From: Geosiphon pyriformis uo1
Lineage: Eukaryota; Fungi; Glomeromycota
Direction of reading: 5' to 3'
Assembly (NCBI GenBank): GCA_016748015.1
Contig: JAAOMT010000675.1
Location: 744,001 to 808,000, forward strand
DNA: 64,000 nt
Position 1 is the stretch's first letter; the number at the start of each line of letters is the position of its first letter. Below are positions 1 to 52,683 of the stretch, piece by piece. Under the pieces are notes generated by a model, which made no database searches, was not told the origin of the DNA, and worked only from the letters and a program-made list of their open reading frames with translations. The translations under genes were made by a program, and so were the position numbers.

Positions 1-3000
1 TACCTCAGAAAATGCCTCACCCAATAATCTGGAAACCAACCAAAAACAATCATCTACCAACAACATACCTCCAGCCACTGTTACTAATGACAAATCACTA
101 ACAGCAATCTTCCTGTTCAAACTTGAAAAAACCACAACAGTTTCATTATTCAGTAAAGTTGTTCTTGATATCAAACCAATTACTGCCATGTACACTGATG
201 CAAAAGTTGATGGCCATGTCATCAAACTGATCCTAGATAGTGGATCAGCTGGCAGCATCATCACATGACAACTCATGAACCAATTAGGTTGCAGAGTTGA
301 TTGTACTGTCAGCATGCGCATAATCACTGCTAATGGAGCAACCAAAACCCCTATTGGTGAAATTGATGACTTCTCTTTTGAAGTCAATGGTATTATTACT
401 TCCATCAAAGTTCTAGTGATAGAACCAACTTAATATCAAGCATTAGTAGGAAATGACTGGTTGTTTAAGACCAACACTATACTAAACTAAACAATACAGA
501 AGCTTCAACTTAACCAAAATGGTTGACACACACATATACCAGCCACATGTGGCCACTTCAAGCCAATCAATATGCCAGCACCTTTTATCAAGTTTAAGGA
601 AGAAGAGAAAAAACCTACCTGGGAAGCCTATCAAGTGTTCTGGGCCAACAAAGACTACAACAAGTTGCTGCCAATATTCTTCTGAGATGACAAAAAAGGA
701 AAGAAGAACCTACCTGGAATTCTGACCAAACCTGGAAAACCGACAACGATCAAGATGAAATAACAATGTGAGAAGAGAAAAAAATAATGATAAGGGAAAA
801 AAGAAAGCAAAAGAAGAAGATCCAATACTGACTACTATTTATAATGACTGCACCTATACTATTCTACAACGATCTACTTATCGTCAACCAAAACTCATAT
901 GCGTTAATTGTGACAAGAAATTGTTGTCAATAGATATGTGCTGTAGTGACAATAAGGAATACTTAACAGTAACCAAATTCTACTGCCACACATGCATCAT
1001 AGAATGCTTTAGATATCCAAAATAGCAAGAAAAATGGAACAATAAATCTTGTCTAGCTTGTGAAGAAACATTACTTAACGAAGGAATGTGGAACAACATT
1101 TCTGGTCAAGGAGGAACATATGATACTGTGTGCCAGTACACAATTCTCATCAGTGACTGGGTTAGAAAAAGGACACTAATAGAAGCTGTCTGGAAAAAAG
1201 CCATACAGCAGTTGGACAGTTGTCCACATGATGATGATAAGATATGGAGAATGGCAATTGCCAAAATCAAAAAAACATCACCAAAAGAAATAAGGATGAT
1301 CAAAAACAACCCACCAGAATCCATAGAACTTAACTGGAACTCAAAACCAGTTATAAATCTCTTGGACCCAAAACAATTCTACAAACACTATCAAGAACTA
1401 GTACCTACAAGAGAAAAGCAGGCACAATGCTTGGAAGAAATCAACACCTGACTATGTGATTACTGTTTGATTTCATGTAACTTCCAATATTGTAATAAGT
1501 GTAACCTTATTTACAATCCACTACCACGCATGATTTACATGATCCCAGAAAAAAAAGAATCAATCAACAGCTGTGCATCAGAATTGGAATCAACTTTCAA
1601 TCCTAATTCAAACTCTGACAATAATAATGACAAAAATAACAGTTCCAGCTCCACTCAATATGGCAACAAAGATAACAAAAATTTGGACTCCAATTCAAAC
1701 CCCGAAACATACATTGCACTCTCTGATCTCACCAAGGAATAAGAACTCAAATGGTTCAGTGATAATAATAAAAATATTATGCCAGAACACATGCATAATA
1801 CTGATACAGGATTTGATCTAAGATATCCAAAGAAATATCTCATCAAATTGAAACCATATTTGCATACTTGTATTGATCTGAAAATAGCACTGAAAATTCT
1901 AGCAATGACAAGCATCCAGGAGTAGTTTAGCAAAAAAAGGGATCAACATCAGAGGAGGAATAATTGACACAGAATACATAGAAAATATTATTGCTATGCT
2001 ACAAAATGACTCAGAAAAGACCTACACCATAGATCCAAACAAAAAAATAGCACAGGCAATATTTCTACTTTTGGTTAAAATAGCTAAATTAGTATTAATG
2101 GGAAACAGGAAAAAATTAAGGATAACAGCAAGAGAGATACAAGGATTTGGATCTATGGATAGAATAGATATACTAGTTAATATGATAGAGGAAGAGATTA
2201 TTAACAAAGAAGAAATTATCTCAAACCATCAATCAATTTCTATTCCACCATATAACCAGTATATGTTAGCCATAAAAAAAGAAGTAAAGAATCAAGCTCA
2301 GTTGTTTGAAGCAAAAGCCACTATTTGCAAATCAGGAAAGATTGAATTCACTAATCTCTACATATCAGCCAAAAGCCCCAAAAACATCAAAATTTCTATC
2401 TACAACACAATGGGAAGTGTCATTAAAATACCAAAGAGAACCATTATTGAATATTTAACTACCAAAGTTGAGGATCAACCACCAAACCACATTCCAGATT
2501 TTCTACAGCTTTGCGGATATGTGGATATTACATCACAAACTATCTATGGACAAAGTGAATGTTATTTGCTCCAACCAGAACAATTGGAACAGATAAACAT
2601 GGAGAATCTGAATCCATTCCAACAGATACAACTAAAGATATTACTCAGCAATTTTAATGACATTTTTGCTAGTGAAAATGAATTTGGTCACACCAGCATT
2701 ATTCAGCATCAGATCAAAACTGGAGATGCAATGCCAATTAAACAAAGAAGATACAGAATACCATTAGCTAGCCATGAGATCATTTGTCAAGAAATCAATT
2801 AGATGCTTAATAATAGGCTAATTCAGCTATTAATGAGTCCATAGTTATCACCAGTGGTACTAATTTGAAAGAAAAATGAGAAAATCTGTTTTTGTGTGGA
2901 CTATTGAAAACTGAATAAAGTAACTAAAATTGATAGTTATCCAACTCCAAAGATCCAAAAACTATTTGATGCTTTTGAAAAAAATAAATGGTCCTTGACA

Positions 3001-5406
3001 CTAGATTTAGATGGTGGTTACTGGCAAGTAGCCATGAACTCAGCCAACAAGGAAAAAACAGCATTTACCACAAGAGAGAGAAATTTTGAGTTTGAAGTCA
3101 TGCCATTTGGCTTGATAAATACACCAGCAACATTTCAATGGCTTATAGAAATTGTCTATACTGAATTACTATGGAAATCAGTAGTCGTATACTTGGATGA
3201 CACCAATATGTTCTCAAAAACATTTGATAATTATCTGCATCATCTCTAACAAGTGTTTGAAAGATTAAGAAAAGCTGGATTAAAACTAAATGCAACAAAA
3301 TGTTTCTTTGAAAAAACTGAACTCAAGTTTTTGGGACATGTAGTAAGTAAAGATGGAATCAAAACAGATCCAGACAAGATTGAAGTTGTTAAGAACTTTT
3401 CAGTACCAACTAACTTGACAGAACTAAGAGCATTTTTGGGATTCGCAGGCTATTATTACCACTTTATCAAAGACTTTTTGAAATTGGCTCAGCCATTTCA
3501 CCATCTACAAACCAAGAATGTGAAGTATAAATAGACCAAAGCTTAACAAAAAGCATTCTACACATTAAGAAAAAAGCTTATTCAAGCTTCAGTATTGATG
3601 TATCCAGATCATAGCAAGCCATTCATAATTACAACTAATGCATCTGGTCAAGCATTGAGAGCAGTACTTTCACAGAAAAAACCAGATAGAAGAGAACATC
3701 CAGTAGCTTATGTTAGTAAAAGCTTAAGTCTAGCAGAAAAAAACTATAGAACTCCAGCACTAGAATACTTAGCTATCTATTAGGCTATTATCAAATGGAA
3801 AGAATACTTGAGTCAGAAGTTTGATGTATATACTGATCACAAAGGATTGATTTCAATCCAGAAGCAAAAATTTAGAAACAATTACCATGTCAGATGGAAA
3901 ATAGAACTTTCACCATTCAATTATACAGTACATTATAAAAAAGAAAAAGACAATAGAAATGCTAACAGTTTGTAGTAAATGAGACAAATCTAAAAACATT
4001 TCAACCCAAAAATATAACAAAAGATGAATATCCAAAAATACAAACAATTTCAACATTATATAAATACCCAATTGTTCAAGGAAAAATTATCTCAACAGGA
4101 ACAAAGAAGCATAAAACAACAATCAAAATATTTTATCAACCATCAAAATGTACTTTACTGAAAGAACAGAAGAAATTCAGAGCAACCAACCAGAGTAATC
4201 ATAAAACCAGAGAAAGAAACAATATTATTTAACATGCACTCAGATCCAACAGCAGAACACTTTTACAAAGAAGCAACCATGGAAAGAACCAAAAAAAGAT
4301 ATTATTGGCTATCAATGTATCTAAACATCATTCAATACGTTCAAAATTGTAATGCTTGTCAAAGAAGAAATGGAACAAAACCCAGTAAATCATTAAGACT
4401 AATCAAAGTAAGACAACCATTTGATCACATTGGAATTGACTTAGTTGGACTATTAACAATCACCAGTAGAGACAACAGATATATTGTAGCAGCTATGAAC
4501 TATCTTACAAAATGGCCAGAAGCAAAAACCATTCAAAGAGCAGATGCAGAATTCATTGCCGAATTTGTTCATCAAGATCTGATTTGTCAACATGGATGTT
4601 CAAAAAAATTATTATCAGATCAAAGAACCCACTTTGTGAACAAAATATTGACAGAATTAAGTCAAAGATTTAGAATTAAAAGACCATTATTATCACTATA
4701 CCATTTACAAACAAATGGCTTAGTTGAAAGATTTAATAGAATACTGTGTGAAGCAATAGTCAAAATTAGCCAAAAAAACCAGAACAAATGAGATTTGTTT
4801 ATACTATCAATATTATTTGCTTATCGGACAATAAAGCAAGATACCATACAAGCAATATCATTTGAATTGGTATATAGTAGAACAACAACATTACCAGTTG
4901 AGATAGAGATTAATATATATCTAATTAAACCAATAACAGAAGATAATTTCCAAGAAACATTGTTGAAAAGAACATATGACTTAATAAAAACACTAAAAAA
5001 CAGATGACGAAAAGCAGCTAATAACATCCAAAAGTCACAAAAAAAGCAAAAAAAATAACACAATAACTAACTACCAGATAAACCAGTTGAATTCAAGATT
5101 GGAGACAAAGTACTATTACATTATACCAAAGTGGAAAAACAATGGAATGGAAAATTTGACCTCAAATAGAACAGACCATTTCACATAAAAGAAATTCTAG
5201 GAAATAAAGCTTATAAATTAAGATAAAACAACAAAATCTTAGCCAAAGCAGCACATGGTAATTGACTGAAACTATATCACTAAATAGTATCATTATTTAC
5301 CAATAACATTCCACAACTGGGAGTACAAAGAATACTAGTTCAACCAGATAAGATTTTACAAGATCTGAAACCAATCATAGTTATTGAACCAAACACGTCA
5401 AATTGA
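1..5406 (+). pseudogene. pol: pol polyprotein of element A (PR, Cys-rich, dUTPase, dUTPase-like, RT, RH, IN), many stops and frameshifts
   Basis: Collinear ORF fragments 768-5007; most stops are explainable as CAA>TAA, CGA>TGA or TGG>TAG; ends with a GPF module and no chromodomain. Confidence 0.95.
1745..2160 (+). pseudogene. dut: dUTPase domain in element A pol (frameshifted by a short deletion before motif 2)
   Basis: TDTGFDL, SRSSL, GGIIDTEY, KIAQAIF and REIQGFGSM correspond to motifs 1-5 of trimeric dUTPases. Confidence 0.93.
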
Positions 5407-5461
5407 ACAACCAAAAAGTATATAAAGACACAGTACATGTGACAAAAGCAACAAAAAAAAA

Positions 5462-6097
5462 ATGGAAATACCAAATTATATTCACACTATAACTCAACAA
5501 TTGTTCCAGGCCTTAAGTCAACAACAGTTAGATATGAAAATTGTTATTAACAACCAAATAATTTGCTATCAAAACACCCAAAAAAAAACAAAAAATACAC
5601 CATATCAGTGGCCACCAAAGAATGACAAAAACTGGACAGATAACTTAATAAAAAAAGTGAAGAACACTTTTGGAAAAATACCTATTATAACACCAACAGA
5701 AGAACTTACAAAAGAAAATTGGAAGCAATAGACAGAATGACTTTCAATATTATATTGCTACTACCAGTTAGGTCAAAAATTGAATATTCAGGAGTTGTAT
5801 ATCAACAAATCCAAGAAAATATTCAACCAAGACATAATACAACAAATTAAAGAATTTATTGGAAAGAAAACAAGTTCAACACTACATGTTAAAACAATGT
5901 ATTGACTATACAACATATTTCGAAATTATCCAGAAATACTGTTACACTCTGACATGAAAACCATAACCATTAACCAATAGAGAAAAATAAACAATACACA
6001 AGTAGAAGATGTGAGAAACAGAGTTGAACAAACAATACTTGAAAAAGAAGTATTAGAATTAATTCAAAACAAAGATTTTGATAGAGCTCAATATTAA
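5462..6097 (+). pseudogene. Accessory ORF3 of element A (env position, ~211 aa, soluble, unknown function)
   Basis: One frame from ATG 5462 to TAA 6097 with a few internal stops; homologous ORFs at the same position in B, C, D and F. Confidence 0.85.
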
Positions 6098-6111
6098 AAA
6101 AGAGGAGATAG
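6096..6111 (+). other. Polypurine tract of element A
   Basis: aaaaaagaggagatag directly before TGTTAC of the 3' LTR. Confidence 0.85.
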
Positions 6112-7000
6112 TGTTACTCATAAAAAAAAACAAATATAGAAAAAATAATAGACCAATAGGAGAATAGTAGTTAGCACATGAGCATATTGTTCAGCAATAT
6201 AAAGCAATGTCAGAAATTATGGCACATTGCTTAGCAATATAGAGCAATATCAGAAATCGCAGCATATTGTTTAGCAATATGGAGCAATGTTAAGAAAATA
6301 TAGCACATTGCTTGAGAAATTATAGCACATTGCTCAAGAATGTGAGTGATCTCATAAAACCCAAATTATGTATATATAATGGTAGTATTAGAAATAGAAA
6401 AGACAGACCTCTTAGTTTAGATTTTATCTAAGCAACTTTCCAATTCACAAATATTAATAAATAATTATTCTTTATCTTAAATCCACTCTTCACTATTAAC
6501 ATGAAGTATTGATAGTAATTGATACTTAACCATGCTAGAACAATAGCTCTTGATTACAGCTATTAATGGGATACTAACTTGCAATTGCTTTTGTTTATTT
6601 TCTTTTATTTTCTTTTATTTTCTTTGTTTTACTAATTGATTGAAGATTAAGCACTGAGTTATTGACATCAAGAATAGTCTGGTAAAAGACTCCAAAGAAA
6701 GGGTATAGGATTTATATATATTAACGGATAGCTTATCAGAAAGGCATCTCTGCCAGATTACCGGTCACCATGCTGAGAAAGAAATTTGATGGAATTGCAA
6801 TTCTGGAAGGCTACTAAAAAGACAACAATTGAATCTCTGTCTATTATACAAAGAACTCAACAACAAAACCTTCAGATAAATCACACCATCAAATAATAAC
6901 AACATACTAACATTACCAATACCATTTACCAGATTAATCACTGAGCACCAAGTTACAGGTTTGTTATTTGATTTGAAACCCCAAATATTCATCTGTAACA
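6112..7000 (+). repeat. 3' LTR of element A (889 bp)
   Basis: TGTTAC...GTAACA termini; TATA-like tatatataa near 6371; downstream half similar to the LTR of E. Confidence 0.93.
6172..6340 (+). repeat. U3 tandem array in LTR A (~40-bp units containing the palindrome ATTGC-N3-GCAAT)
   Basis: gcatattgttcagcaatataaagcaatgtcagaaatt.. / gcacattgcttagcaatatagagcaatatcagaaatc.. / gcatattgtttagcaatatggagcaatgttaagaaa.. plus partial units. Confidence 0.85.
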
Positions 7001-9061: not shown

Positions 9062-10043
9062 TGTTACCAGTAGAATTTTAGCTATTAATTAGCATGAAAT
9101 TACCCTTATAATTCCTATTATTAATTAGCATAAATTATTATTAATTTGATTATCACTTATTATTTAATCAAATTATCAAATATTATTACTCAATCAATAA
9201 TCCGATTTGTACTCTAGAAATTAAGATGATCAAATTACACAATACTCTGAATCTTTTAACATAGTCAAAATTCGCCGAAATTAATGAAAATTCGCCGAAA
9301 TAATCAATAGTTCAGTGAAATAACTTGTAAATTCGCCAAAATGTATTTTTAGTTTACCCAAATTGTAGCAAAGAGAAAAGTACAAGTTCAAAGACTAGTA
9401 CTACAACAAGTTGTATAAAAAAAAAGCTTTTCTCTTCAAAAAAATATATCTTCTTATCTTCTCCTAGTATCTTACTATAGTATCTTACTGTAGATATCTT
9501 AATTGAAACAAATCATCTTTTACAAAATCAAATAAAAATCAAATATTCAAAAACCAAATTCTTAAATTATTACACTTAAAATTCCCTCAATACAACTAAC
9601 GTTTTGAAATTGATTAGCTACCAATTTCAGTAAACTGTTAGTGACTCCAGGCCTAGATAGAAAACGTTTTCCTTAACAAAATTCTATTTCTTTTACATTT
9701 TTTTTATTTTTTTTCTTCTTTTCTTATTACAATCATTGGGGTAGCCTACAGACGAGATTTCTGTAGAAGATTTAACTTTTACAGCAAAGTAACTACACAT
9801 TTTTTAGTGAGCTTCCAAACAAGCAATTCCTGGGAAAAAGTTGATGTTTACTACAACATAACTACATAAAGTAACTGGCAAGAAATTGGCCATTCCACTT
9901 ATAAGCCCAGCAGTTCAAATTATAAGAGATAATTTGAAGATAAATTCAGTTACTGGAGGTTTAACTACTTCTAGAAAATGTGAATTTGCAACCAACAGAC
10001 ATTTACAACATTCAAGAAAAGAGACCAAAAACCTCTGGTAACA
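9062..10043 (+). repeat. 5' LTR of element B
   Basis: TGTTAC...GTAACA; direct repeat of 18003-18981. Confidence 0.97.
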
Positions 10044-10045
10044 TT

Positions 10046-10063
10046 TGGTGCTCTCCCACAGAA
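10046..10063 (+). promoter_or_regulatory. Primer-binding site of B (TGGTGCTCTCCCACAGAA)
   Basis: Starts with TGG 2 nt after the LTR; complementary to a tRNA 3' end ...GAGAGCACCA, which is not initiator Met. Confidence 0.88.
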
Positions 10064-10088
10064 ATAACACAGCAACAACAAATTCAAA

Positions 10089-13000
10089 GTGGTGACCACA
10101 CCAGACACAACAACTCTAGAGTATCATTAGTCAATTTACATCTACTGCAAGCAAAGATTCAACATCCCAGACGGAATTGAAGTTGTCAAGAAATCAGTAT
10201 ACCAATACATTGAAAATCGCATCAACAATTATTTTTTTGGAAACTACAACATTTTAGAAGTTAGAAGCAATCTCTACAATAATTTAGTACACTATTCACA
10301 ATTGGGAACAGAAGACCTGAACAGTGAAACACTTGCTACTTACTTTCAAGAACTTAATTTTAATATTATTGAGTATTGTGAAGAAAAATACCCAGTACAG
10401 CCCAAATACTCTTTTAACTTTGAATCAGAAACAGAGACAAGCAACAAAGACAAACAAAAAGTGAAACAATACTCAAGAACCACTCCAAACACTCCAATAC
10501 TACCAAAGACAACTGCCAAACACTTGCAAACACCTGAACAAAGAACCAATGTCAAATTACCACTTTCTATTACACTATTTCCAATTTCACTTGTTCAACC
10601 ACAAACACCAAGTTCACTACTTAACCATTTCTCCAGACCAGAAGATTTTCAGTCACCTAGAAATCCTACTCAACAACAAGAACCAATATTAACAAGTGCC
10701 AATATCATTGATTACTTACAGAAAAACGAAAGTAATCATTCAGAAAGCTTGGAAAGTGAAGAAACTAAATCAGAACCAGAAAATGAAGAAGAAATGGCAA
10801 CTGCTTACATTGCAAAAATTCCAGAATTCACTGGTGAAGACAATGATACCAGTCCTCAAGAATGGCTTGACAAAGTTCAAAAAGCAGGAGATGCAAATGG
10901 TTGAATTGCAGCAAGAATGCTCAAAGCAATTCTCTACTTTCTTCAAAAAACAGCAGAAGAATGGTTTGAAAATTTAGAAGAACCATTTGAGAACTGGCAA
11001 GCATTCAAAGATGCTTTTTTACAACAATTTACTAATAACAACACCTCTATTACTTTCTGCAATTGCTTTTGCAATATCAAACAAGAAACATCTGAAACTG
11101 TCATGACTTATCTTGGAAGATTCAACAAACTTCTTCAACAAATTCGACAATTGGAAACTAATAACTACTATTCTAATGCTCAGATTCTGAATCAGTTTAT
11201 AGCAGGATTAAAAGACAAATTGATTAAGAAAGTCCGTCCACATGCACCAGCAGACTTAGCAACTGCCATCAGACATGCAAAGAACTATGAAATGGCTATG
11301 GAAAAAGCAAACCACACCAAACTCATCAACCTAGCTATTGGAGAAACCAGTTCAGCAGCTGAAAAGAAGATAGATCAACTCACAAAGAAGGTTGAAAGCT
11401 ACTTCACAAATCAACAACAACAGCAACAACAACCACAAAGATATCAACTCCCACAATGACGCAACCAAAACAATTTTGGATCACCATTCAACAACCAACC
11501 TCAAAATTGTCATTATTGTGGAATTCCAAGACACTGGAAATGAGATTGTAGAAAATTACAAAGAGACCAACAAAACAGAAGTAATCAACATTACTCTTCA
11601 CCATAACAATCTTATTACCAATTTCCACCACCAACTTATTATTCACTAAGACCACAAAATTAAAACAGTTACTATTAACCAGCTCCACAACCAATGCAGC
11701 AACAATATCAGCAACCTTTATCAATTCAGCCATATCAGACACCACCTATTCAACAATATCAAGTACCAGCAAGAAGATTGGTTCAACATAACCAATTCAC
11801 ACCCCAAAATCAATTTCAGAATAACAACAACAGAATCAATCCAAATAACCAGTTGGTTTTCCGAAATTCTGGTCAGCAAAGACCCAATCACTATTACACT
11901 CAACCCAGTTATCTTACAATACCAGAGAAATCGGATTTTTAACAACTTGCACTTTCTGAAAGTAAAGTTGCAACACCCAGATCAAACCCTTCCAACAACA
12001 CTATTCCATCAGCTCAAATTGCCCAAAATGCCAATCTTTCAAATATATTCCCATTCGAATTTAAAGCAAATGAATCACTATTCTTGCTTAGTAATGCAGC
12101 AGCTAATGAACAAAGAGCTATTACTGCTATGTACACTGAAGCTACAGTAGAAGAAAAACCCATCTGACTAATTCTAAATAGTGGATCAGCTGGAAGTATT
12201 ATCACCTACCAGTTAATGCAACAGCTTCAAAGAACTGTTGACAGACCAGCCCAAACTGTAATTGTTATAACAGATAGTATGAAAAAGACACCAGTAGAAG
12301 AAATTGACAATTTTCTATTCATCATTGATGGAATCACCATTCCAATCAAAGTTCTAGTCATGGATGCACCCCAATACCAAGTTCTGGTCGAAAATGATTG
12401 GCTTCTTAAGGCCAATGCAAACTTAGACTGGGAAACTCAGGAATTAAAAAATCTCATACCAAGGACAATACACCATAGTACCTGCTACTTGTGGTACTTT
12501 TAACAAATGATTAGAAAAGCCCCAGTATTTGAATTTGAAGAGGAGAAAGAAATACCACTTATTGAAACTTACATGGCTCTTGGATCAACATCCAATTGGG
12601 GTGAAAAAACAGAACAGGAAATTTTTGAAGAATCAAGAAGATGGAAGAAAGTTAGATATTCTACACCAGAACCACAGAAACAACCACCCTATATTCCACT
12701 TAAATGCAAAAATTGCAATAAAAAACTTTCATTAATGGAAGCATGTATTTCTCCAGAAGAAGAATATGAAACTCGTACCTGTTATTTTTGTAAAGCATGC
12801 TATAAAGAATGATTTGGATCTCTAAAAAGAAGTAGAAAATAGGACAACACATCTTGCCTTACATGTGGAGATATGTTACCAGAAGAATGCAACTGGATTG
12901 ATGTTGCAATAAGAGGAGGAGTATGTGATTAAACTTGTCAATATGCTCTATCAATTTCGGAAAAAGTCAGAAGAGGAACACCATTTGATGCAGCATACAA

Positions 13001-16000
13001 CAGTGCTTTCAATAAACTTTACCACTACCTTCATGATACTGAAATGATTTTTGACCTAGTAATAGCATTGATCAATGGAGCCACTTAAGAAGATGTCTGC
13101 CAAATGAAAGAAGCTAAATACATTGAGTATATTATAGAATTAACTGGATTTGATTATGAAGATGAAGTAGAAACCTACCACCAAATTGCAAGCCACACAT
13201 ATCTGACTCAAGAAGCTCAAATTTAACAATTAAAGCAAATGAACATTCAATTGTGTAAAGAATGCATCATGCTTTGTGATGACAAATGGTGTCCAGAATG
13301 CTATGCTCTTAGCATTCCCCTGCCAGAGGAAAATGATGAAAATGAAATCGAATTTGGAGTATCTGAACTGGTAGAAGAACTACCAACCATCCCCATTTAT
13401 CTTCTTGAAAAGCAATCACCTCTACAACTTAAATATTTTGACAACTATGGCCAAAAAATCAGACCAGAAAAAGCACACAAAATTGATGCTGGATATGACT
13501 TAAGATATCCAGAAAAAGATATTTTGGTTCTTTAACCAAAGTTCTTGACAAAAATCAATCTCAAAATTGCTTTTGAAATTTCACCTGGAGCAATAGTTCA
13601 AATTGCACCCAGATCATCATTGGCAAGCAAAGGAATCAATGTTAAAGGAGGAGTTATAGATGCAGGATATACTGAAGACATTACTATCATGTTACAAAAT
13701 GAAACAAACAAACCATTCAGGATTGAACATGCTGAGAAAATTGCCCAAGCAATTTACCTACTTCTAATCAACATTTTGGAGTTACAATCAGTTAAAAACA
13801 GAGAACAATTGAGAAAAAGTAAAAGAGGAACTCAAGGTTTTGGTTCAACTGAACGATTTACAATTCCAGTAAACATAGCTCTCAATACACAAAATAAATC
13901 TTACCAGATTCTTCAACTTCCCCAACCAATTACCATTTCACCTTTTGGTAAACATCACAAAATTTACACTTGTTCAAAATCCATTACTATCCAACAAATC
14001 TTTGAATCCAATGAACAAATCTGTTTAAAACATGAAATCTCAATCCCAAATGTTTATATTCCCAAAGAAATGAAAAAATTTCAAGTTATATTCTATAATC
14101 CCAATAATTACCCCATTGTCTTATTGAACAAACTAGAGATTGGAATCATACACAGTAATATTTTTCAAGATGAAAACCCTTAAATTGTCTCTAATTTCAT
14201 CGAAATTATAAGACATACACTACTTTCAAATCCAAACATCATTTCTACCACTGAAAACTACCACCTTTTAGAAGAAAAACTCTCTCAAATTAACATGGAT
14301 CCCTTAGAACCCCAACAACAAAGACAATTGAAACAATTGATAGCTGAATTTGCAGATATATTTGCAAAAGACAACAATAACCTTGGAAAAACGGATATTG
14401 TTCAACACCAAATTCATACAGAAGATGCTCCACCAAAACAACAACAAGTCTATTGAGTTCCACTTGCTAGCCACCAATTTATTAGAGAAGAGGTCCAAAG
14501 AATGCTCAATAACAGATTGATTCAACCATCAAAAAGTCCATGGGCCTTACCAGTAGTTTTTGTCAAAAAGAAAAATAGAAAAATCAGATTCTGTGTTAAT
14601 TATTGACAATTGAATAGTGTTACAATTGGAGATACCTACTCTCTTCCAAGAATTGATAACATATTAGATGCTTTAGAAAAAGCCAAGTTCTTCTCAACTT
14701 TAGACTTGAAAAGTGGATACTGGCAAGTCAAAATGGACCCAAAAGATAGACCCAAAACAGCATTTACCACCCAAGAAGGAAACTATGAGTTCAATGTTAT
14801 GCCTTTTGGATTCTGCAATGCACCAGCAACATTCCAACGACTCATGGATGTTGTATATAAAGGATTCTTATGGCAATCAATAGTTGTTTACCTTAATAAT
14901 ACTGATGTGTATTCACCAAGCTTTGAAGTCTATCTTATTTACCTGTGAGAAGTTTTTCAACAATTATGAAAAGCAGAATTGAAGTTGAATATTGAGAAAT
15001 GTCACTTTGGAAAAACAAGCTTAATCTTTCTTAAACACATAGTTAGCAAAAATGAAGCCAAACCAAACTCTGGAACAATTAGTGCTGTCAAAAACTTTCA
15101 AACTCCCAAAAATACCATAGAACTAAGAGAATTTGTAGGATTAGCCTTCTACTATCGAAAATTTATAAAGGAATTCTCAGAAATTGCCAAACCACTTAAT
15201 TATCTTACCAACAAAAATGTGCTATACAAATAGACAAAAGAACAACAAAAAGCTTTTAAAATCCTCAAAACAAGATTGACAACAGCCCCAGTTCTTGTTT
15301 ACCCAGACTTCAACAAATGGTTTCAACTAGCCACTAATGCTTTACACATAGCTTTTGGTGCCATCCTATTACAATTGGATGAAAATGGCCAGGAACAAAT
15401 TATTGCTTATGCTAGTAGAACACTCAAGCCAACAAAACTCAAATATAGCTCAACAAAACTAGAAGCTGCCGCAGTTATTTGGGCTCTCAAACACTTTCAA
15501 CAATACTTGAAGAATAGAAAAGAGTTTGACATTATAACTGACAATATTGACCTCAAATGGTTTAATAAAAATAAAAAAGAACAAAGTGCCAAACAGTCTC
15601 AATAGAATGATTTTTTAGCAGACTACAAATATATAGTAAATCACAAACCAGAAAAACTACACACCAATATTGACAGCCTTTCAAGAATGAGACAATATTA
15701 ATACCAACATCAACACCAACAAAACACCAACAAACTTAACAGCAGAACAAATAACAAAATCAACAACAATGAATTCAGAAAACTACAACAACATCAAAAA
15801 CTATTTAAAGACTCTCACCATGCCAGAAAATTGGTCTTTAAGTAAAAAACATTGATTACAATACCAATCCAAACAATATTTTATATATCACAACAAAATC
15901 TATTACAAGAATCATAGAAATCCAAACCAACCACTCAAATTAGTACAAAAAAATGAAAAAGAAACAATCTTATACAACATGCACACAGATTCTTCTTCAG

Positions 16001-17154
16001 CACACTTGGGAAGAAATGGAACAATTCAAAGAACTCTTGAACATTACTTTTGGCCTCAAATGCAAAAAGACATTCGACAATATATAGAATCTTGTAATAG
16101 TTGTCAAAGAAGAGAAGGAACTCACTCCACAGAACCTTTAAATCCAATCAAAGTTGGACAACCTTTTGACAGAGTTGGAATTGATTTAGTCGGACCATTA
16201 CCTATTACAACTCAAGAAAATTGTTATATTGCAGTTGCAATAGATTATCTTACCAAATGGCCTGAAACTAAAGCCATTCAAAGAGCAGATGCAAAATCAG
16301 TAGCAAATTTCATCTATCAAAACATTATTTGTAAACATGGATGTCCAATTGAACTTTTATTTAATTAAGGAACATATTTTGTGAACAACTTGATACAAGA
16401 AATTTGTGAATGATTCAATGTCAAAAGATCTCTATTATCACTTTATTACCCTCAAACAAATGGACTTGTAGAACATTTCAACAGAACATTGTGTGAATCT
16501 TTAACCAAAGTCTCAACAGATTTTGAGCAGGAATGAGATATCTTTATTCCATCAGTGTTACTAGCATACAGAACACTAAAACAAGATACTATGAAATACA
16601 CACCATTTGATCTTACTTATGAAAAGACAGCAACATTATCAATTAATTTCACAATGGAAACATACCCTGTACAACCAATTAATAAAGAAAACTTTTAAGA
16701 AACACTCCAAAGAAGAACCTACACTCTTCTTAGTACACTGGAAGAAAAAAGAAGAATAGCAGCAACTCATATTAAACATTCCCAAGCTCAACAAAAAGAA
16801 AGACATAACAACAAATTACCACCCATAACCAATGAATTTAAAGTTGGAAATAAGATTCTCTTACACAGAACTAAGGCTGAAAAACAATGGAGTGGAAAAT
16901 TTGAAAACAAATGGGATGAACTATTTTATATTCACGAAATTCTAGGCAATAGATTATACAAGTTAAGACTTAATGACAAAGTACTAGCAAAAGTTGCACA
17001 TGGAGATAGATTGAAACACTATCATTCCAGAAACAATCCTAAATTATTAATTCCACAAATTGGTACACATTCCCCTTTAATTAATTCTGAAGATATTTTC
17101 CGAAATTTAGAACCAATAATTATAATAAAACAACAACCAAACTTGAATACTTAA
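10089..17154 (+). pseudogene. gag-pol: Single gag-pol polyprotein of B (N-extension, CA, CCHC knuckle, Q/N-rich linker, PR, Cys-rich, dUTPase, RT, RH, IN)
   Basis: Capsid MATAYIAKIPEFTGED..WLDKV from 10794; CHYCGIPRHWKxDC at 11508; PR near 12170; RT 14520-15050; IN RVGIDLVGPLP; gag and pol stay in frame across a TAA where C has CAA. Confidence 0.95.
13420..13853 (+). pseudogene. dut: dUTPase domain in element B pol
   Basis: DAGYDL, APRSSL, GGVIDAGYTEDI, EKIAQAI, RGTQGFGST. Confidence 0.96.
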
Positions 17155-17315
17155 TTCAACATAATTTTACAATAATCTTTTTAATAACACACAAAGACAA
17201 AAATAGTAAATAATTACAAAAACACCCAAAACCCAAAAACAAATAAAACCTCATATCCAAAAAAAATAAGAATAATTTCTTTATTCTTCCTTTTCATTAA
17301 TTAGTCAATTTTATC

Positions 17316-18022
17316 ATGATTATTCCCTAAAATATTCAACAAATATCCCAAAATTAATGTTAGCCTTGAAAACACTTCCTAACTTATCCATAACGATTAA
17401 TAGAAGTTAAATTAATTAGATTCAAAAAAAAACCACAGCCTCAATAGTAAATAATTCTCAGAACTACCACTCCTATAGAAAAAAAACAAGAGGTTATTCT
17501 GAAAAAAGATTACCAGAACTTTTGAAGCAAGCACTGAAAGAAAACCTTTTAATTGCCCCTATTGACATTTTACCAAATGCCACAATTCAACAGAAACTTC
17601 TACTATGTCTTAATGAACAGAACAATGAACATACCCTTATATATAGATATTTTCATATTGGAAAAACACTTTACGAATGAAAACTAGAACTTGAAGCAAC
17701 CAACATCACTCCTAAGGCTATACAAAAACAAATTCACAATGAATTTAAGACAGCAGCTAGATCAACAAACACTCGTTACAAACTTAGAGCAGCTTTTAGA
17801 CTCTATGATTTATTCACCAATTGTGAAAACGTCTTACAAAATCTAATACTCCAACCAATGAAAGTTCAATACATTGGAAAATTTACAGAACTGAAATTTC
17901 AACAATTTTCAGACCAAATCACTTCAATTATCTTGGACCACTATCTTAACATCACAGATAGTGCTTGGACTTCAATGGAGCTCAGTCTTGAGAAGGAGAT
18001 TATGTTATCAGTAGAATTTTAG
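17316..18022 (+). pseudogene. Accessory ORF3 of B; reads through the PPT and stops ~20 nt inside the 3' LTR
   Basis: MIIPxNIQQISQ..MLALKT..YRYFHIGKTLY..KLRAAFRLYDLF..IGKFTELKF..SLEKEIMLSVEF*; homologous to F 58199-58918. Confidence 0.85.
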
Positions 18023-18981
18023 CTATTAATTAGCATAAAATTACTCTTATAATTCCTATTATTAATTAACATATATTATTATTAATTTGATTATTACTTA
18101 TTATTTAATCAAATTATCAAATATTATTATTCAATCAATAATTCGATTTGTACTTTAGAAATTAAGATGATCAAATTACACAATACCCTGAATCTTTTAA
18201 CATAGTCAAAATTTGCTGAAATTAATGAAAATTTGCCGAAATAATCAATAGTTCAGTGAAATAACTTGTAAATTCGCTGAAATGTATCTTTAATTCACCC
18301 AAATTGTAGCAAAGAGAAAAGTGCAAGTTTAAAGACTAGTACTACAACAAGTTGTATAAAAGAAAAGCTTCTCTCTTTAAGAAAATGTATCTTCTCATCT
18401 TCTTTTAGTATCTTACTATAGTATCTTACCATAGATATCTTAATTGAAACAAATCATCTTTTACAAAATCAAATAAAAATCAAAATTCAAAAACTAAATT
18501 CTTAAATTATTACACTTAAAATTCCTTCAATACAACTAACATTTTAAAATTGATTAGCTACCAATTTTAGTAAACTGTTAGTGACTCCAGGCCTGAATAG
18601 AAAACGTTTCTCTTGACAAAATTCTATTTCTTTTACATTTCTTTTATTTTTTTTTCTTTTCTTATTACAATTATTGGGGTAGCCTACAAACGAGATTCCT
18701 GTAGAAGAGTTGACTTTCACAGCAAAGTAACTACACATTTTTTAGTGAGCTTCCAGACGAGCAATTCCTGGGAAAGAGTTAATGTTTACTACAATGTAAC
18801 TACATAAAGTAACTGGCAAGAAATTGGCCATTCTACTTATAAGTCCAGCAGTTCAAATTATAGGAGATAATTTGAAAATAAATTCAGTTACTAGAGGTTC
18901 AACTACTTCTAAAAAACGTGAATTTACAACCAACAGACATTTACAACATTCAAGAAAAGAAACCAAAAACCTCCAGTAACA
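18003..18981 (+). repeat. 3' LTR of element B
   Basis: Direct repeat of 9062-10043, preceded by the PPT. Confidence 0.97.
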
Positions 18982-32891: not shown

Positions 32892-33848
32892 TGTTATTAG
32901 AGATTTTTGGTTTTTTTTTAATGTTGTTAATGCTTGTTTGCTGTAAATTCACGACTAAAGGAAGTAGTTAGATTTCCAATAACTGGATTTATTTTCAAAT
33001 TATCTCCTATAATTTGAACTGCTAAGTTTATTAGTGGAATCACCAATTTCATGCCAGTTACTTTATATAGTTATGTTGTAGTAAACATTACTTTTTCCCA
33101 GAAATTGCTTATCTGAAAACTTACTAAAAATGTGTAGTTACTTTGTTGTGAAAGTCAACTCTTCTATAGGAATCTCATCTGTAAACTATCTTAATAATTA
33201 TAATACAAAAATAATAAAAAAATAAAAGAAATAAAATTCTAACAAGAGAAACATTTTTTATTTAGACTTGAAGTTACTAACAGATTATTGAAATTGGTAG
33301 CTAATCAATTTTAAAATATTAGTTGTGTTGAGAGAATTTTAAGTGTAATAATTTAAAGAATTTGGTTTTTGAATATTTAATTTTTATTTGAAATGTGTAA
33401 AAGATAATTTGTTCTAATTAAGATATCTAAAGTAAGATACTATGTTAAAATACTATAAGAAAATATATTTTCTTGAAGAAAAAAGCTTTTCTTTTATACA
33501 ATTTGTTGTAGTACTAGTCTTTGAACTTGCACTTTTTTTTTGCTTTAATTTTGGTGAACTAAGGATACATTTTGACAAACTACAAGTTATTTCTACAAAT
33601 TATTAATTATTTCAGCCAATTTTCATTAATTTCGGCGAATTTTGACTATATTAAATGGTTCAGAGTATTGTGTAATTTGATTATCTTAATTTTTATGATA
33701 CAAATCAAGTTATTAATTGAATGATAATATTTAATAATTTTGTTAAATAATAAGTAATAATTGAAATAATAATAATATATGCTAATTAATAATAAGAATT
33801 ATAAGGATAATTTTATGCTAATTAATAGCTAAAATTCTATTGATAACA
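32892..33848 (-). repeat. 3' LTR of element C
   Basis: Similar to the reverse complement of the B LTR; PPT gaggaggag adjacent at ~33853-33861. Confidence 0.95.
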
Positions 33849-34535
33849 TAATCTCCTCCTCAAGACTGAGCTTTATTAAAGTTCAAGCATTATCTGTAAT
33901 ATCAAGATAATAATTCAAAATAATTGAAGTGATTTGGTTTGAAAATTGTTGAAATTTCAGTTTTGTGAGCTTTTCAATATATTGAATCTTTATTGGATAA
34001 AGTATTGGATTTTGTAGGACATTTTCACAAGTGTTGAATAAATCATAGAGTCTAAATGCTGCTCTAAGTTTGTAACAAGTGTTTGTTGGTCCAGCTGTTG
34101 TTTTGAATTCATTGTGAATTTGTTTTTGTATAGTTTCAGGAGTGATGTTTGTTGCTTTAAGTTTCAGTTTTCATTTATAAAGTGTTTTTCTAATATGAAA
34201 ATATCTATAAATAAGAGTATATTCATTGTTTTGTTCCTTAAAAAATAATAGAAGTTTTTGTTAGATTGTGGTATTTGGTAGAATGTTAATAGAGGCAAAT
34301 AAAAAGTTTTCTTTTAGTGTTTGCTTCAAAAGTTCTGATAATTGATTTCCAAAGTAACTTCTTGTTTTTTTCTATAAAGGTAATAATTTTGCAAATTATT
34401 TTCTTCTGGTATTGTGGTTTTTTTTTGAGTGTAATTAATTTAATTTTTATTAATTATTATGGATAGATCAAGAAATGTTTTTAAAACTAACATTAATTTT
34501 TGGGATATTTGTTGAATATTTTAAGGAATAATCAT
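33829..34535 (-). pseudogene. Accessory ORF3 of C
   Basis: Collinear with ORF3 of B and F. Confidence 0.8.
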
Positions 34536-34699
34536 GATAAAATAACTAACTAATAAACAAAATTTTGAAAAAAAATAAAGAAAATTATTTTTGGATATAG
34601 AGTTTTATTTATTTTTGGGTTTGAGTGTTTCTTGTAATTATTTACTATTTTTGTTTTATGTGTTGTGTATTTGAAAAGAAATATTGTAAAAATATTAAC

Positions 34700-37600
34700 T
34701 TAAGTGTTCAAGTTTGGTTATTGTTCTATTATAACTATTGGTTCTAAATTTCGGAAAATATCTTCAAGATTAATTAAAAAAAAATGTGTACTAATTTGTG
34801 GAATTAATAGTTTAGGATTGTTTCTGGAATAATAATGTTTTAATCAATCTCTATGTGCAATTTTTGTTAGTACTTTGTTATCAAGTCTTAACTTGTATAT
34901 TGTTTAAAATTTCATAAATATAAAATGATCCATCCTATTTATGTTCAAATTTCCCACTCCATTGTTTTTTAGTCTTAGTTCTGTTTAAGAGAACTTTATT
35001 TTTAACTTTAAATTCGTTGGTAATTGGTAATAGTTTGTTATCATGCCTTTTTTTTTATTGAGCTTGAGAGTGTTCAATATAAGTGGCTGCTATTTGTCTT
35101 TTTTTTTTAGTGTACTAAAAAAAATGTATGCTCTTCTTTGGAGTGTTTTTTGAAAGTTTTCTTCATTGATTGGTTGCATTGTATATGTTTCTACTGTGAA
35201 ATTAATTGGTAATATTGCTGTTCTTTCATAAGTAAGATCAAATAGTGTGTGTTTTATAGTATCTTGTTTTAGTGTTTTGTAGATTAGTAATACTAATAGA
35301 ATAAATATATTCCATTTCTGCTTAAAATCAGTTGAGATTTTGGCTAAAGATTCACATAATGTTTTGTTGAAACATTCTACAAGTTCATTTGTTTGAGGGT
35401 AATAAGGTAATAATAGAAATTTTTTGACATTGAATCATTCAAAAATTTCTTGTATTAAGTTGTTCACAAAATGTGTTTCTTAATCAAATAAAAGTTCAAT
35501 TGAGCATCTATGTCTACAAATAATGTTTTTATAGATAAAATTTGCTATGGATTTTGTATCTGCTTTTTGGATGGCTCTAGCTTTAAGCCATTTGGTAAGA
35601 TAATCTATTGCAACTGTAATATAATAATTTTCTTGAGTTGTAATAGATAATGGTCTGATTAAATCAATTCCAACTCTGTTAAAAGGTTGTCCAACTTTGA
35701 TTGGATTTAAAGGTTTTGTGAAACAAGTTCTTCTTTTTCTTTGACAATTATTACAAGATTCTATATATTGTTGAATGTTTTTTTGCATGTGGGGCCAAAA
35801 ATAATGTTCAAGAGTTTTTTGAATTATTCTATCTTTTTTCAAGTGTGCTGAAGAAAAATCTGTGTGCATGTTATATAGAATTGTTTTTTTTTCATTTTTT
35901 TGTATTAATCTGAGTAATTGGTTTGAGTTTCTGCAATTTTTATAATAGATTTTGTTATAGTGTATGAAATATTGTTTTAATTGGTGTTGTAATTAATGTT
36001 TTTTACTTGGAAACCAATTTTTTGATATGGTAAAAGTCTTTAAATAGTTTTTGATGTTGTTGTAATTTTTGGAATTCATTGTTGTTTGGTTATTTTTGTT
36101 AATAGATTGATAAGTTGTGGTAAGATTACTGTTGGTGTTAATCTTGTCTTATTCTTAAAAGACTATTAACATTGGTGTGTAGTTTTCCTGGTTTGTAATA
36201 TACAATATATTTGTAGTCTGCTAGAAAATTATTCCATCAAGACTGTTTAGCACTTTGTTCAATTTTTTTTTATTGAGCTATTTAAGACTAATATTGTCAA
36301 TTATTATGTTAAATTCTTTTCTATTTTTCAGATATTGTTGAAAGTATTTAAGAGCCCAAATAACTGTGGCAGTTTCTAATTTAGTTAAGTCATATTTGAG
36401 TTCTGTTGGTTTGAGTGTTCTATTGGCATAGGTAATGACTTGTTCCTGACCATTTTCATTCAATTGTGATAGAATTGCACCAAATACTGTGTGTAAAGCA
36501 TCAGTAGCTAATTAAAACTGTTTATTAAAGTTTGGATAAGCAAGAACTGGAGCTGTTGTCAATTTTGTTTTGAAGGTTTTAAAGACTTTTTATTGTTTTC
36601 AGTCCATTAATATGGCACATTTTTTTTAGTAAGATAATTAAGTGGTTTGGCAATTTCTGAGAATTCTTTTATAAATTTTTAATAATATAAAGCTAATCCT
36701 ACAAATCCTTGTAGCTTTATAGTATTTTTGGGAGTTTGAAAGTTTTTAATAGCACTAATTATTTTAAGATTTGGTTTAACTCTATCTTTGCTAACAATGT
36801 GTTCAAGAAAGATTAAACTTGTTTTTTTAAAATAATATTTCCCAATATTCAACTTCAATCCTGCTTTCTATAATTATTAAAAAACTTCTTGCAAATGAAT
36901 AAGATGATCTTTAAAGCTTGGTAAGTACATATTAGTGTTATTCAGATAGACAACTATTAATTGCCATAAGAGTTCTTTATAAACAACATTCATGAGTCAC
37001 TGGAATGTTGCTGGTACATTGCAAAATCTAAAAGACATAATATTAAATTTATAGTTTCCTTCTTAAGTGGTAAATGCTATTTTAGATCCATTTTGACTTG
37101 TTAGTATCCACTTTCCAAGTCTAAAGTTGAGAAGAATTTGGCTTTTTCTAGAGCATCTAACATGTCATTAATTCTTGGAAGAGAATAAGCATCTCTAATT
37201 GTCATACTGTTCAGTTGGTAATAGTTAACACAAAATCTGATTTTTCCGTTTTTTTTTTAACCAAAACTACTAATAAGACCCAAAAACTTCTTAATAGTTG
37301 AATTAATCTGTTATTAAGCATTTTTTGGACTTTTTCCCTAATAAATTGGTAGCTGGCAGGTAGTACTCAATAGGTTTGTTACTATTTTGGTGGGACATCT
37401 CCTATGTGGATCTGATGTTGGACAATATCAGTTTTTTCAAAGTCATTGTTGTTTTTTGCAAATATATCAGCAAATTCAGCTATCAGTTGTTTTAATTGTC
37501 TTTGTTGTTGGGATTTCAAAAGACTCATGTTGATTTAGGAGAGTTTTTTTCTAAAAAGTAATAGTTTTCAATAATAGAAATGATGTTTGAGTTGGGAAGT

Positions 37601-40600
37601 AGGGTATGTCTTACAATTTGGATGAAATTAGAGACAATTTGAGGGTTTTTATCTTGAAAGATGTTGTTATATATGATTCCAATTTCTAATTTATTTAATA
37701 GAACCAATAAGATAATTGTTGGAGTTGTAAAATATAACTCAAAATCTTTTTATTCTTTTGGAAATATAAATGTTTGGAATTGAAATTTTATGTTTTACAC
37801 AGATTTGTTTATTGAATTCAAAAATTTGTTGAGTAATAATGGGTTTTGAGCAGGTGTAAATTTCGTGATGTTCTTCAAAAAATAAAATGGTAATTGGTTG
37901 GAAAAGTTGAAAAATTTGGTAAAATTTATTCTGTGCATTAAGAGCTATGTTTACTGAAACTGTAAATCGTTCAGTTGAACCAAAATCTTGAGTTTCTTTT
38001 TCACTTTTTCCTAATTGTTATCTGTTGTCAACTGATTGTAAACCTGAAATATTGATTAAGAATAGGTAAATTGCCTAAGCAATTTTTTTAGCATGTTCTA
38101 TTCTAAATAGTTTATCAGTTTTATTTTGTAGCATAATTGTAATGTTTCCAGTATATTTTGCATTTATGACTTTTTTTCTAATACTGATTTTTTTGCTTGC
38201 CAATGATAATCTGGATGCAATTTGAATTATTGCTCCTAGTAGTATTTTAAGAGCAATTTTGAAGTTGATTTTGGTTAAAGCTTTTGGTTAGAGAACCAAA
38301 GTATTTTTTCCTAAGTATTATAAATCATATTCAGCATCTATATTATGGGCTTTTTTTGGCTTAATTCCTTGACCATTATTTTTAAAATATTTGAGTTGTA
38401 GAACTGGTTGACTTTTAGTGAGATAGATTGGTGTTGTTGCAATTTCTTCTTCTGGCTTATGTTCTCTAAATTTGATTTCCTCTTGGTCGTTTTTATTGGG
38501 TAAGGGGATGTTGAGAACATAGCATTCTGAACATTATTTGTTATTACAAGACATAATGCATTTTTCACACAATTGAATGTTTATTTGCTCTAATTATTAA
38601 ATTTAAGCTTCTTGGGTTAGATAAGTGTAACTTACAATTTGGTAATATGTTTCTACTTTATCTTTATAGTTGAATCTAGCTAATTTCATAGTGTATTCAA
38701 TGTATTTAGCTTCTTTTATTTGGCAGACATCTTCTTATATAGCTTTATTGATTAAAGTTATAGTTAAGTCAAAAATCATTTTAGCATTATAAAAATAGTA
38801 ATAGAGTTTATTAAAAGCACTATTGTATGCTGCATTAAAAGATATTTCTTTTCTGACTTTTTTCGAAATTGATAGAACATATTAACAGATTTGGTCACAC
38901 ACTTTTTTTCTCATTGCAACATCAATTTAGTTGTATTTTTCTGGTAACATATCTTTACATATAAGACAAAGAGTGTTGTCCTATTTTCCACTTCATTTGA
39001 GATATCTGAATTGTTCTCTATAGCATGTTTTACAGTAGTAATAGGTATAAGTTTCATATTTCTTTTCTGAAAAGATACATGTTCTTATTAATGAAAGTTT
39101 CTTTTTGTAATCTTTACATCTAAGTAGAATATAAGATAGTTGTTTTTGTGGTTTTGGTGTAAAATATCAAACAATATTCCATCCTTTGGTTTTCTCAAAA
39201 ATTTCTTGTTCTGTTTCTTCAGCCCAATTGAATGTTGGTTCAAAAGCCATGTATGTTTCAGTAATTGGCATTTCTTTCTTTTTTTTAAATTTGTATATTA
39301 GAGCTTTTTTAGATTATTTATTAAAAGTACCATATATAGCAGATACTCAAGTGTATTGTCCTTGGTATGAAATCTTTAGTTCTTGGGTTTTTCAATCTAG
39401 ATTTGCATTGGTTTTAAGAAGCCAATCATTTTTGACAAAAGCTTAATATTGGAGTACATTCATGACTAAAACTTTAACTGGAATGATTATTCCATTGACC
39501 ATAAATGGAAAGTTGTCAATTTCTTCTATTAGAGTTTTCTTTATATTATCAGCTGTAAAAATTACTGTTTGAGCTGGTCTGTCAATATTTTGATTGAGTT
39601 GTTGTATTAATTGATAGGTAATAATACTTCCAGCTAATCCATTGTTTAGAATTAAGCAGATTTGTTTTCTTTTTACTTTAGCTTTAGTATATATAGCAGT
39701 AATTATTTTTTGCTCATTGACTGCTGCATTGCTAAGCAAGAATAGTGATTTATTGGCTTCAAATTCAAATGGAAATATATCTAAAAGGTTAGCATTTTAA
39801 GCAATTTAAGCTGGTAGAATAGTATTGTTGAAAGAGTTTGATCTTGGTACTGTAACTTTACCTTCAGAAAGTACAGTTTGTTGAAAATTTGATTCTTTAG
39901 GCATTGTAAAATAGCTGGGTTGAGTGTGGTAGTGATTGAATCTTTGCTGATCAGAATTTTGAAAAACCAACTGGTTGTTTGGGTTGATTCTGTTGTTATT
40001 ATTCTAAAATTAATTTTGAGATGTGAATTAGTTTTGCTGAACCAATTTTTGGGCAAATACTTGGTATTATTGTGTAGATGGTGGCTAATATTGTTGAATC
40101 TGTAAAGATTGCTGTGATATTGGTTGTAAGACTGGTTGGTAATAGTTGTTTTGATACTGTAATCTTGATAAATGATATGCTGGTGGTAAAAATTGGTAAT
40201 AGAACTGTTGATGTTGGAAATAATGTTGATTATTCCTGTTTTGTTGGTCTCTTTGCATTTTTCTACAATCTTATTTTCAATGTTCTGTAATTTCACAATA
40301 ATAATAGCTTTGTAATTGATTGTTGAATAATAAAGAGTAGTTGTTTTGATTGCATTATTGGAGTGGCTGATATCTTTATGGTTGTTGCTGTTGTTGTTGA
40401 TTGGTAAAATAACTTTCAACTTTCTTTGTAAGTTGGTCCATTTTTTTTTCAGCTGCTCAGCTGGTTTCTTTAATAGCAAGATTCACAAGTTTAATATGAT
40501 TTGCTTCTTTTATTGCCATTTCATAGTTTTTTGCATATCTAATGGCTGTTGTTAAGTCTATTGAGACATGTAGACAAACTTTTTTGATTAGTTTATCTTT

Positions 40601-41711: not shown

Positions 41712-41757
41712 TTTAAATTTTGTTGTTGCTGTATTATTTCTATAGAAGAGCACCAAA

Positions 41758-44265: not shown

Positions 44266-44278
44266 TTATTCTCTTCTT

Positions 44279-52643: not shown

Positions 52644-52683
52644 TGTTGATTAGTTGTTGGTGCTGGTTCTCTGTAGGATTATA

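Follow-up and report, generated by a model that had tools for sequence, protein, structure and literature searches.

Ty3/Gypsy elements of Geosiphon pyriformis that encode integrase as a separate reading frame

In the textbook long terminal repeat (LTR) element, integrase (IN) enters the particle as part of Pol. The Metaviridae profile of the ICTV, the international virus taxonomy committee, describes elements with one gene (gag-pol), two genes (gag and pol) or three genes (gag, pol and env), with IN lying inside pol (PMC7879559). The stretch of DNA analyzed here, 64,000 nucleotides of contig JAAOMT010000675.1 from the fungus Geosiphon pyriformis (hereafter the window), carries six decayed Ty3/Gypsy LTR elements, which self-BLAST sorted into two families: family 1, comprising elements A, D, and E, and family 2, comprising B, C, and F. 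The elements resemble canonical Metaviridae, represented by Ty3, in their LTRs, primer-binding site (PBS), polypurine tract (PPT), capsid-nucleocapsid (CA-NC) region, and order of protease (PR), reverse transcriptase (RT), RNase H (RH), and IN, and their best match in the PDB is Ty3 RT, but they differ in that IN is an open reading frame (ORF) of its own and the third ORF encodes a soluble protein, not env. We consider it fairly probable that they belong to a non-chromoviral clade, likely of arbuscular mycorrhizal-type fungi, in which a Gag-PR-RT-RH frame ends at a conserved stop and is followed by a separate IN, translated by reinitiation, and by a soluble ORF3.

Several parts of this layout have precedents. 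An earlier note on this DNA described typical fungal Ty3/Gypsy elements as chromoviruses carrying only gag-pol, which is too narrow: non-chromoviral fungal elements exist, and a dUTPase between PR and RT has been published (PMC2864245). PosPlaTy3-5, Phanerochaete elements, and Tuber Tmt1 are fungal Ty3/Gypsy elements with a dUTPase, positioned between PR and RT in PosPlaTy3-5, but they have one or two ORFs, with an additional ORF, its function not given, marked in a figure legend, and the accessible part of their description mentions neither a separate IN nor a Cys-rich domain (PMC2864245). The Ylt1-like elements and SN_1006, compared by description only, are also fungal and without a chromodomain, but they come from ascomycetes and basidiomycetes, and no split IN is described in the available portions of the sources (PMC2864245, PMC3248453). 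Juno, Vesta, and TelKA of bdelloid rotifers carry a dUTPase in pol and non-envelope ORF3s, some of which are enzymatic, like the NUDIX-bearing ORF3 of metagenome locus L011 (PMC5408684), and planarian Burro has a dUTPase between PR and RT in pol (PMC6431247); as far as these sources are accessible, both differ from the window elements in their animal hosts, in having IN drawn inside pol, and in their types of ORF3. Troyka is an unusual LTR lineage with the Gypsy domain order, but the accessible text gives it a 3-bp target-site duplication (TSD), CG...CG ends, animal hosts, and mostly a single Gag-Pol (PMC12440569); it did not prove to be a precedent for a separate IN ORF, and membership of the window elements in it was rejected on their 4-bp TSDs and TG...CA ends. 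Known beforehand, then, are a dUTPase placed between PR and RT, in elements of fungi and planarians, and dUTPase elements with non-envelope ORF3s, in rotifers. New in the window are a Cys-dUTPase cassette under selection in a Geosiphon subclade, ORF3s that are related throughout the clade, and long spacers. The literature searched, which did not cover subscription journals, Repbase Reports, and supplements, yielded neither a title nor an abstract describing a clade of Gypsy elements whose integrase has an ORF of its own.

The separate IN is seen at the junction that follows RH. In element B, whose features all lie on the forward strand, RT and RH form the end of ORF1 (14289..15698, identified by Pfam; best PDB sequence match Ty3 RT, E 7e-77), and the TAA stop at 15699-15701 is followed by a 67-nt A/C-rich spacer without ATG (stop and spacer together 15699..15768), after which ORF2 (15769..17154) encodes a stand-alone IN with its own ATG, the H2C2 motif, the core, and a GPF-type C-terminus. 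All five copies that bear the junction close RH with a stop placed at one and the same codon (four TAA, one TAG), against a frequency of stops elsewhere of 1.3-1.7% of ORF1 codons, and the IN ATG lies 30-67 nt past the stop in varying frames: 0 in A (stop 3991-3993, ATG 4024), +1 in B, +1 in C (36140-36138 and 36079, reverse strand), +1 in D (46419-46417 and 46352, reverse strand), and +2 in F (TAG at 60477-60475 and ATG at 60424, reverse strand). F retains an intact GPF motif, which has decayed in B, and Pfam scans of IN detected no chromodomain, in line with what the earlier note had read for this enzyme. Logan contigs from one DNA run, possibly the source of the window, gave 3084 records on the junction region; depth falls off within the spacer and both of its borders show loose ends, so other subfamilies have other spacers.

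The same arrangement recurs outside the window. A scan with the IN motif yielded 30 metagenome loci (labels L; labels P denote database or metagenome proteins), seven of which do not reach the junction. Among the 23 that span it, 19 are split, amounting to about 13 distinct lineages by our own grouping, and four are fused; L010 was read by eye, and L016, L017, L026, and L030 have damaged frames. Over the 15 tabulated loci, the stop-to-ATG gap can be as small as -8 nt and as large as +111 nt and takes all three frames, with overlaps in L027 (ATGA) and L024 (ATGGATAA) and gaps of 2-6 nt in L011, L028, and L032, and no other ATG lies between the stop and the IN start in any of the 15. A purine occupies position -3 of the IN ATG in 19 of 20 starts. 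Each of the six complete INs looked up has an entry in the protein collection, and for five of them other records contain copies of equal length; a 47-residue fragment from Diversispora eburnea is the named member of one cluster of stand-alone INs, and seven polyproteins in the database stop past RH and lack IN. In P0133, P0145, and P0158, ORF1 runs 170-330 residues beyond RH into a Cys/His-rich tail containing no integrase, and P0133, P0155, and P0158 have CxxC motifs near the N-terminus. Downstream of the fused-pol Gypsy element at L022, a Harbinger-type DDE transposase (PF13359) occupies L022:5328-6203.

The 16 elements lacking a fused IN form a single clade (support 100/99) in an RT-RH tree of 41 rows, left after the removal of 28 of 69 (a long branch, near-copies, incomplete rows, and animal rows in excess). 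Three chromovirus-like references branch apart from the clade, whose neighbors are Gypsy elements of animal type, and a quick 47-row tree agrees; the three references, L005, P0110, and P0125, separate at 98/91 and are the only three for the chromovirus branch, and the chromodomain-like C-terminus of L005 was judged by eye. An IN tree built from 45 of 71 rows groups 24 of them at an SH-like approximate likelihood ratio of 100, and the four loci with fused RH-IN all fall outside the split clade. RT-RH groups with Ty3/Gypsy elements apart from caulimoviruses (references unnamed), and the two LTRs with PBS and PPT, the Ty3-type capsid with CCHC, and the order PR-RT-RH-IN are those of Metaviridae, but we class the elements as variant and not canonical members because IN is not encoded inside the pol gene. 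An Errantivirus or other env-bearing Gypsy identity was rejected, given a maximum 19-residue hydrophobicity of 0.5-1.3 in eight ORF3 homologues and the helical model of this protein. Scans of viral contigs with IN and PR alignments found no relative, and that with an RT alignment found seven loci, which were taken as references. Families 1 and 2 group with L009 in one subclade (100/99). Their shared layout is accordingly a matter of common descent, since the two are sister lineages.

Between PR and RT, the window elements carry additional modules. The Cys-rich domain of about 210 residues (12687..13320) contains 13 mostly conserved Cys including four CxxC pairs, and it is homologous in both families and in metagenome protein P0020, where the 13 Cys are kept in most rows; it has no family match in Pfam or PHROG, the only two libraries scanned, and its sequence makes zinc binding likely. 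In the dUTPase (13464..13850; Pfam PF00692, E 2e-22), motifs 1-5 are all the majority state in 21 Geosiphon-type copies, as expected at sequence level of a trimeric dUTPase. Behind it lies an 85-residue stretch (13905..14162) without catalytic motifs, which has a weak profile match and reached an hhalign probability of 21% (P 1e-3) against dUTPases in the expected register and 70% in a doubtful register. The stretch is thus present where a "dUTPase-like domain" had been proposed, but that identity is weakly supported, and it is possibly a remnant of a dUTPase fold. In three other Gypsy polyproteins, the sequence between PR and RT resembles it faintly (E 0.07-2.6), which suggests that it may be a remnant of greater age rather than the product of a local duplication. 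The distance from PR to RT is 769-874 residues in B, D, and P0020 and 263-307 residues in six other clade proteins, while two further clade proteins have 566-690 residues and a dUTPase with a different Cys-rich stretch. Because this spacing is short, and the Cys-dUTPase cassette absent, in six of the nine other clade polyproteins examined, the cassette marks only a subclade. The old, distinct Metaviridae lineage with accessory functions of the earlier note therefore survives as a non-chromoviral clade with selected modules, but not as one that carries the cassette throughout. The Geosiphon subclade would have acquired the Cys-rich domain and the dUTPase between PR and RT, both would be released from the polyprotein by PR cleavage, and the dUTPase would likely limit uracil in cDNA during reverse transcription. 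The role assumed for viral dUTPases, as given in the accessible part of PMC2864245, agrees with keeping uracil out of cDNA. Of the 38 database matches to the PR-to-RT region of B, 29 are Geosiphon pyriformis proteins, the best at 60-75% identity.

ORF3 (17316..18022, with ATGs at 17316 and 17357) crosses the PPT and stops inside the 3' LTR, and is broken in B. It is predicted to be a helical protein, and, in agreement with the soluble ORF3 of the earlier note, all eight homologues inspected are without a transmembrane-level hydrophobic stretch (maximum 19-residue Kyte-Doolittle mean 1.29). There are 332 homologues, with recurring intact lengths of 221, 239, and 225 residues, and 119 of the 120 matches listed are named Geosiphon pyriformis; P0305 is the ORF3 of L009, P0303 comes from a contig equal in length to the one carrying P0020, and the core motif YxxG...RxYxxF recurs by alignment in four further metagenome loci. 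A model built from a diverse alignment is mostly helical with a predicted local distance difference test score (pLDDT) of 78.9, compared with 45.7 from Geosiphon copies only. Fold searches returned no PDB or BFVD match at E <= 0.001 and none at Z >= 5, and a profile search of PDB sequences found nothing. Below these thresholds, the DNA-binding domains of Spo0J, KorB, and ParB came up at VIA Z 3.3-3.8, and DUF1016_N was matched in 6 of 43 members, at best with 18 bits against a Pfam cut-off of 32.8; the noise level of such weak matches is illustrated by NCBIfam FtsQ, found in 17 of 43 members at E 4e-4. For the idea of a DUF1016/ParB-like protein, hhalign against nine YhcG N-termini gave a probability of 3%, which two of 40 shuffles equalled and which is not significant. 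ORF3 is possibly a nucleic-acid-binding regulator, although this is less likely than not. In L011, where IN is likewise split, the third ORF (L011:1945-2889) encodes a NUDIX hydrolase domain (Pfam E 1e-10), a possible second kind of nucleotide-sanitizing enzyme in the clade. The PPT-LTR junction within ORF3, GAGCTCA(G/A)TCTTGAG(A/G)AG(A/G)AGATTATGTTA, differs little between family 2 (17980-18022) and L009 (near 3110, oriented).

Selection on the modules was estimated as pN/pS from subfamily pairs within each family (B-F and B-C; D-A and D-E), not between the families. The two LTRs of a copy differ by 6.6%, 10.3%, and 9.0%, with totals of 226 transitions versus 14 transversions, and because these differences are nearly all transitions, transversions between subfamilies would mostly date from active replication. 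For B-F, transversion-only pN/pS was 0.11 in PR, 0.08 in the Cys-rich domain, 0.10 in the dUTPase, 0.11 in the dUTPase-like stretch, 0.18 in RT, 0.31 in RH, 0.17 in IN, and 0.26 in ORF3, all with intervals below 1. For D-A it was 0.23 in the Cys-rich domain, 0.18 in the dUTPase, 0.45 in ORF3, 0.10 in RT, and 0.47 in the dUTPase-like stretch, where the interval includes 1. Shifted-frame controls gave 0.65-3.3 for B-F and 0.53-5.2 for D-A, compared with overall ranges of 0.06-0.23 for the Cys-rich domain and 0.10-0.18 for the dUTPase. On all changes, the core of the Gag N-extension had pN/pS of 0.31 (D-E) and 0.55 (B-C) and its low-complexity half about 1.05; B-C values were weaker (Cys-rich domain 0.86, IN 1.06, ORF3 0.79), as expected when post-insertion decay dominates. 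The Cys-rich domain, the dUTPase, and ORF3 are thus under past purifying selection in both families. The dUTPase-like stretch shows it in family 2 only, and the earlier claim of selection on the accessory modules is not borne out for it in family 1.

From the sequence, IN is likely produced by termination-reinitiation on the same RNA. ORF1 would yield a Gag-PR-RT-RH polyprotein that is cut by PR, polyprotein processing by PR being established for the Ty3/Gypsy family; ribosomes would terminate at the ORF1 stop and then restart at the IN ATG, and the free integrase would need to join the particle by binding RNA, RT, or Gag. This route is favored by the short distance kept between stop and ATG, by the overlaps, by the free choice of frame, and by the lack of a conserved splice signal. 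Stop-start translational coupling, with a close or overlapping stop and start as in L027 and L024, operates in the SART1 long interspersed element (LINE) and in victoriviruses; these are a non-LTR element and double-stranded RNA viruses, and such coupling is not known to supply an LTR element with its integrase; many of the spacers here are longer. Several points speak against our interpretation. The spacers of 30-67 nt in Geosiphon and up to 111 nt in others exceed the classic stop-start overlaps, and the missing ATG in the spacers is partly compositional because they are G-poor. The IN motif used in the scan was derived from window copies, which biases the sample to this clade, and 7 of the 16 split rows in the RT-RH tree are proteins without DNA, classed only by lacking IN, while the tree references are unnamed database elements and include no named GyDB element. 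The Diversispora fragment is the only named member in any metagenome cluster, so that the host range is inferred; ORF3 is without a significant fold or family match; and some single pN/pS intervals include 1 (the dUTPase-like stretch in B-C and D-A, ORF3 in B-C).

The main rival to reinitiation keeps the same clade and layout but derives IN, and perhaps ORF3, from subgenomic RNAs made by splicing or from an internal promoter, which is possible but not probable. ORF3s of LTR elements typically come from spliced messages, according to the accessible part of PMC5408684, and a splice acceptor could be read into the YAG placed 2-3 nt before the ATG in L011, L024, and L027 or the AG directly before it in A and D, but over 20 junctions the last YAG lies anywhere from 2 to 145 nt upstream, with neither YAG nor branch-site spacing fixed. 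Long spacers and a strong start context would suit the 5' leader of an mRNA, but many lineages keep stop and ATG close together, a constraint that splicing would not impose.

The earlier note's proposal, an old lineage marked by its accessory modules, which would serve as a counter-defence against host cytosine loss, is unlikely. It fits the purifying selection on the modules, a CpG observed/expected ratio of 0.15, and the excess of transitions between LTRs, and a DNA-binding ORF3 could oppose silencing. However, polarized LTR changes number 42 for C>T and 37 for G>A, versus 13 for T>C and 15 for A>G, and are found in each of the four C contexts. They are not the same in the two LTRs of a copy and affect both strands, so that the decay arose after integration, and therefore a particle dUTPase cannot counter it. 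The cassette is, moreover, missing in the six clade polyproteins mentioned above, and none of the modules matches a known anti-silencing protein. The window copies are all dead, eroded since insertion by a host C>T process acting on both strands. Transitions make up 94% of the post-insertion LTR change, a pattern unlike CpA-specific repeat-induced point mutation or CpG-only decay.

Least probable is a route to IN in which ribosomes enter internally at the spacer, or in which a fused Pol arises through programmed readthrough or frameshifting, because, although the window spacers are A/C-rich and G-poor and in-frame junctions with a single stop occur in A, L009, L025, and L032, the occurrence of all three frames even inside one family (B +1 and F +2; A 0 and D +1) and a conserved Met start on every IN exclude one readthrough or frameshift rule, and overlapping junctions leave no spacer for ribosome entry.

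The elements of the window were delimited by self-BLAST and inspection of their ends. Element A (1..7000, forward) has its 5' part cut by the window and its 3' LTR at 6112-7000, whereas B (9062..18981, forward), C (32892..42733, reverse), and D (43310..53555, reverse) are complete. Element E (55342..57249, forward), which retains the 5' LTR, PBS, and Gag N-extension, is interrupted by F (57250..64000, reverse; 5' part cut by the window), and the insertion of F is the younger event because it sits inside E (55342-57250). The 5' LTR of B (9062..10043, TG...CA) differs by 6.6% from the 3' LTR (18003..18981) and is followed by the putative PBS (10044..10054), whose core TGGTGCTC is common to B, C, D, and E and thus to both families. 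As the earlier note had it, TSDs are 4 bp in all three complete copies, being perfect in C (ATAC/ATAC) and D (TCAT/TCAT) and differing by one transition in B (ACAT before, ATAT after); LTR termini in these copies are TG...CA except for TA at the 3' end of D, and the LTRs of the two families are indeed unrelated, with cross-family matches only in short stretches, mostly one T-rich tract.

The common order is N-extension, CA-NC, PR, Cys-rich domain, dUTPase, dUTPase-like stretch, RT, RH, IN, and ORF3. Pfam recovered Retrotrans_gag/Ty3_capsid, aspartyl protease, dUTPase, RVT_1, RT_RNaseH, Integrase_H2C2, and rve when B was read through its stops, and the same order was found in one frame in D, confirming that the layout is shared. 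In B, the capsid with a CCHC nucleocapsid occupies 10794..11549 (PF03732, PF19259; CCHC read from the sequence) and PR 12099..12434 (PF08284). The Gag N-termini, previously called unrelated, have a homologous core in both families (25% over 64 residues, E 4e-5; 10110..10404 in B), and "complex-retrovirus-like" is a loose term for an architecture with no env-like ORF. No in-frame ATG lies between the PBS and this core in B, C, D, and E, and public gene models link LTR-borne frames to the N-extension across the PBS in differing ways (window 9900-10110), so that a spliced or non-AUG start of Gag is possible. The sense strand of the internal regions (e.g. 10044-18002) is 41-44% A and 10-16% G. Elsewhere, a decayed T-rich element without LTRs lies at 23600-29300 (forward), and its frames, when read through, gave no Pfam match; one portion matches (57%, E 2e-73) a chimeric Geosiphon gene model in its N-terminus, which is LINE-RT-like and not Gypsy, and a more decayed relative lies at about 20250-21160 (reverse).

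LTR elements make up 41.2% of the G. pyriformis genome in the accessible account (PMC11952901). Only tentatively, the elements may represent an undescribed, Glomeromycotina-wide clade of genus level, in which a free, reinitiated IN would be packaged unfused, a helical, nucleic-acid-binding ORF3 would act as a regulator, dUTPase, NUDIX, and Cys-rich modules would be swapped, and which would account for much of the LTR DNA filling 41% of the Geosiphon genome. A clade with a free integrase raises the questions of what allows a eukaryotic RNA to yield the product of a downstream ORF and by which route the enzyme gets into the particle. Annotation tools built around a single pol frame would flag intact elements of this type as broken, and hundreds of ORF3 and polyprotein fragments are annotated as "hypothetical proteins" of G. 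pyriformis, among which ORF3 and the Cys-rich domain stand as selected protein families without an assigned function.

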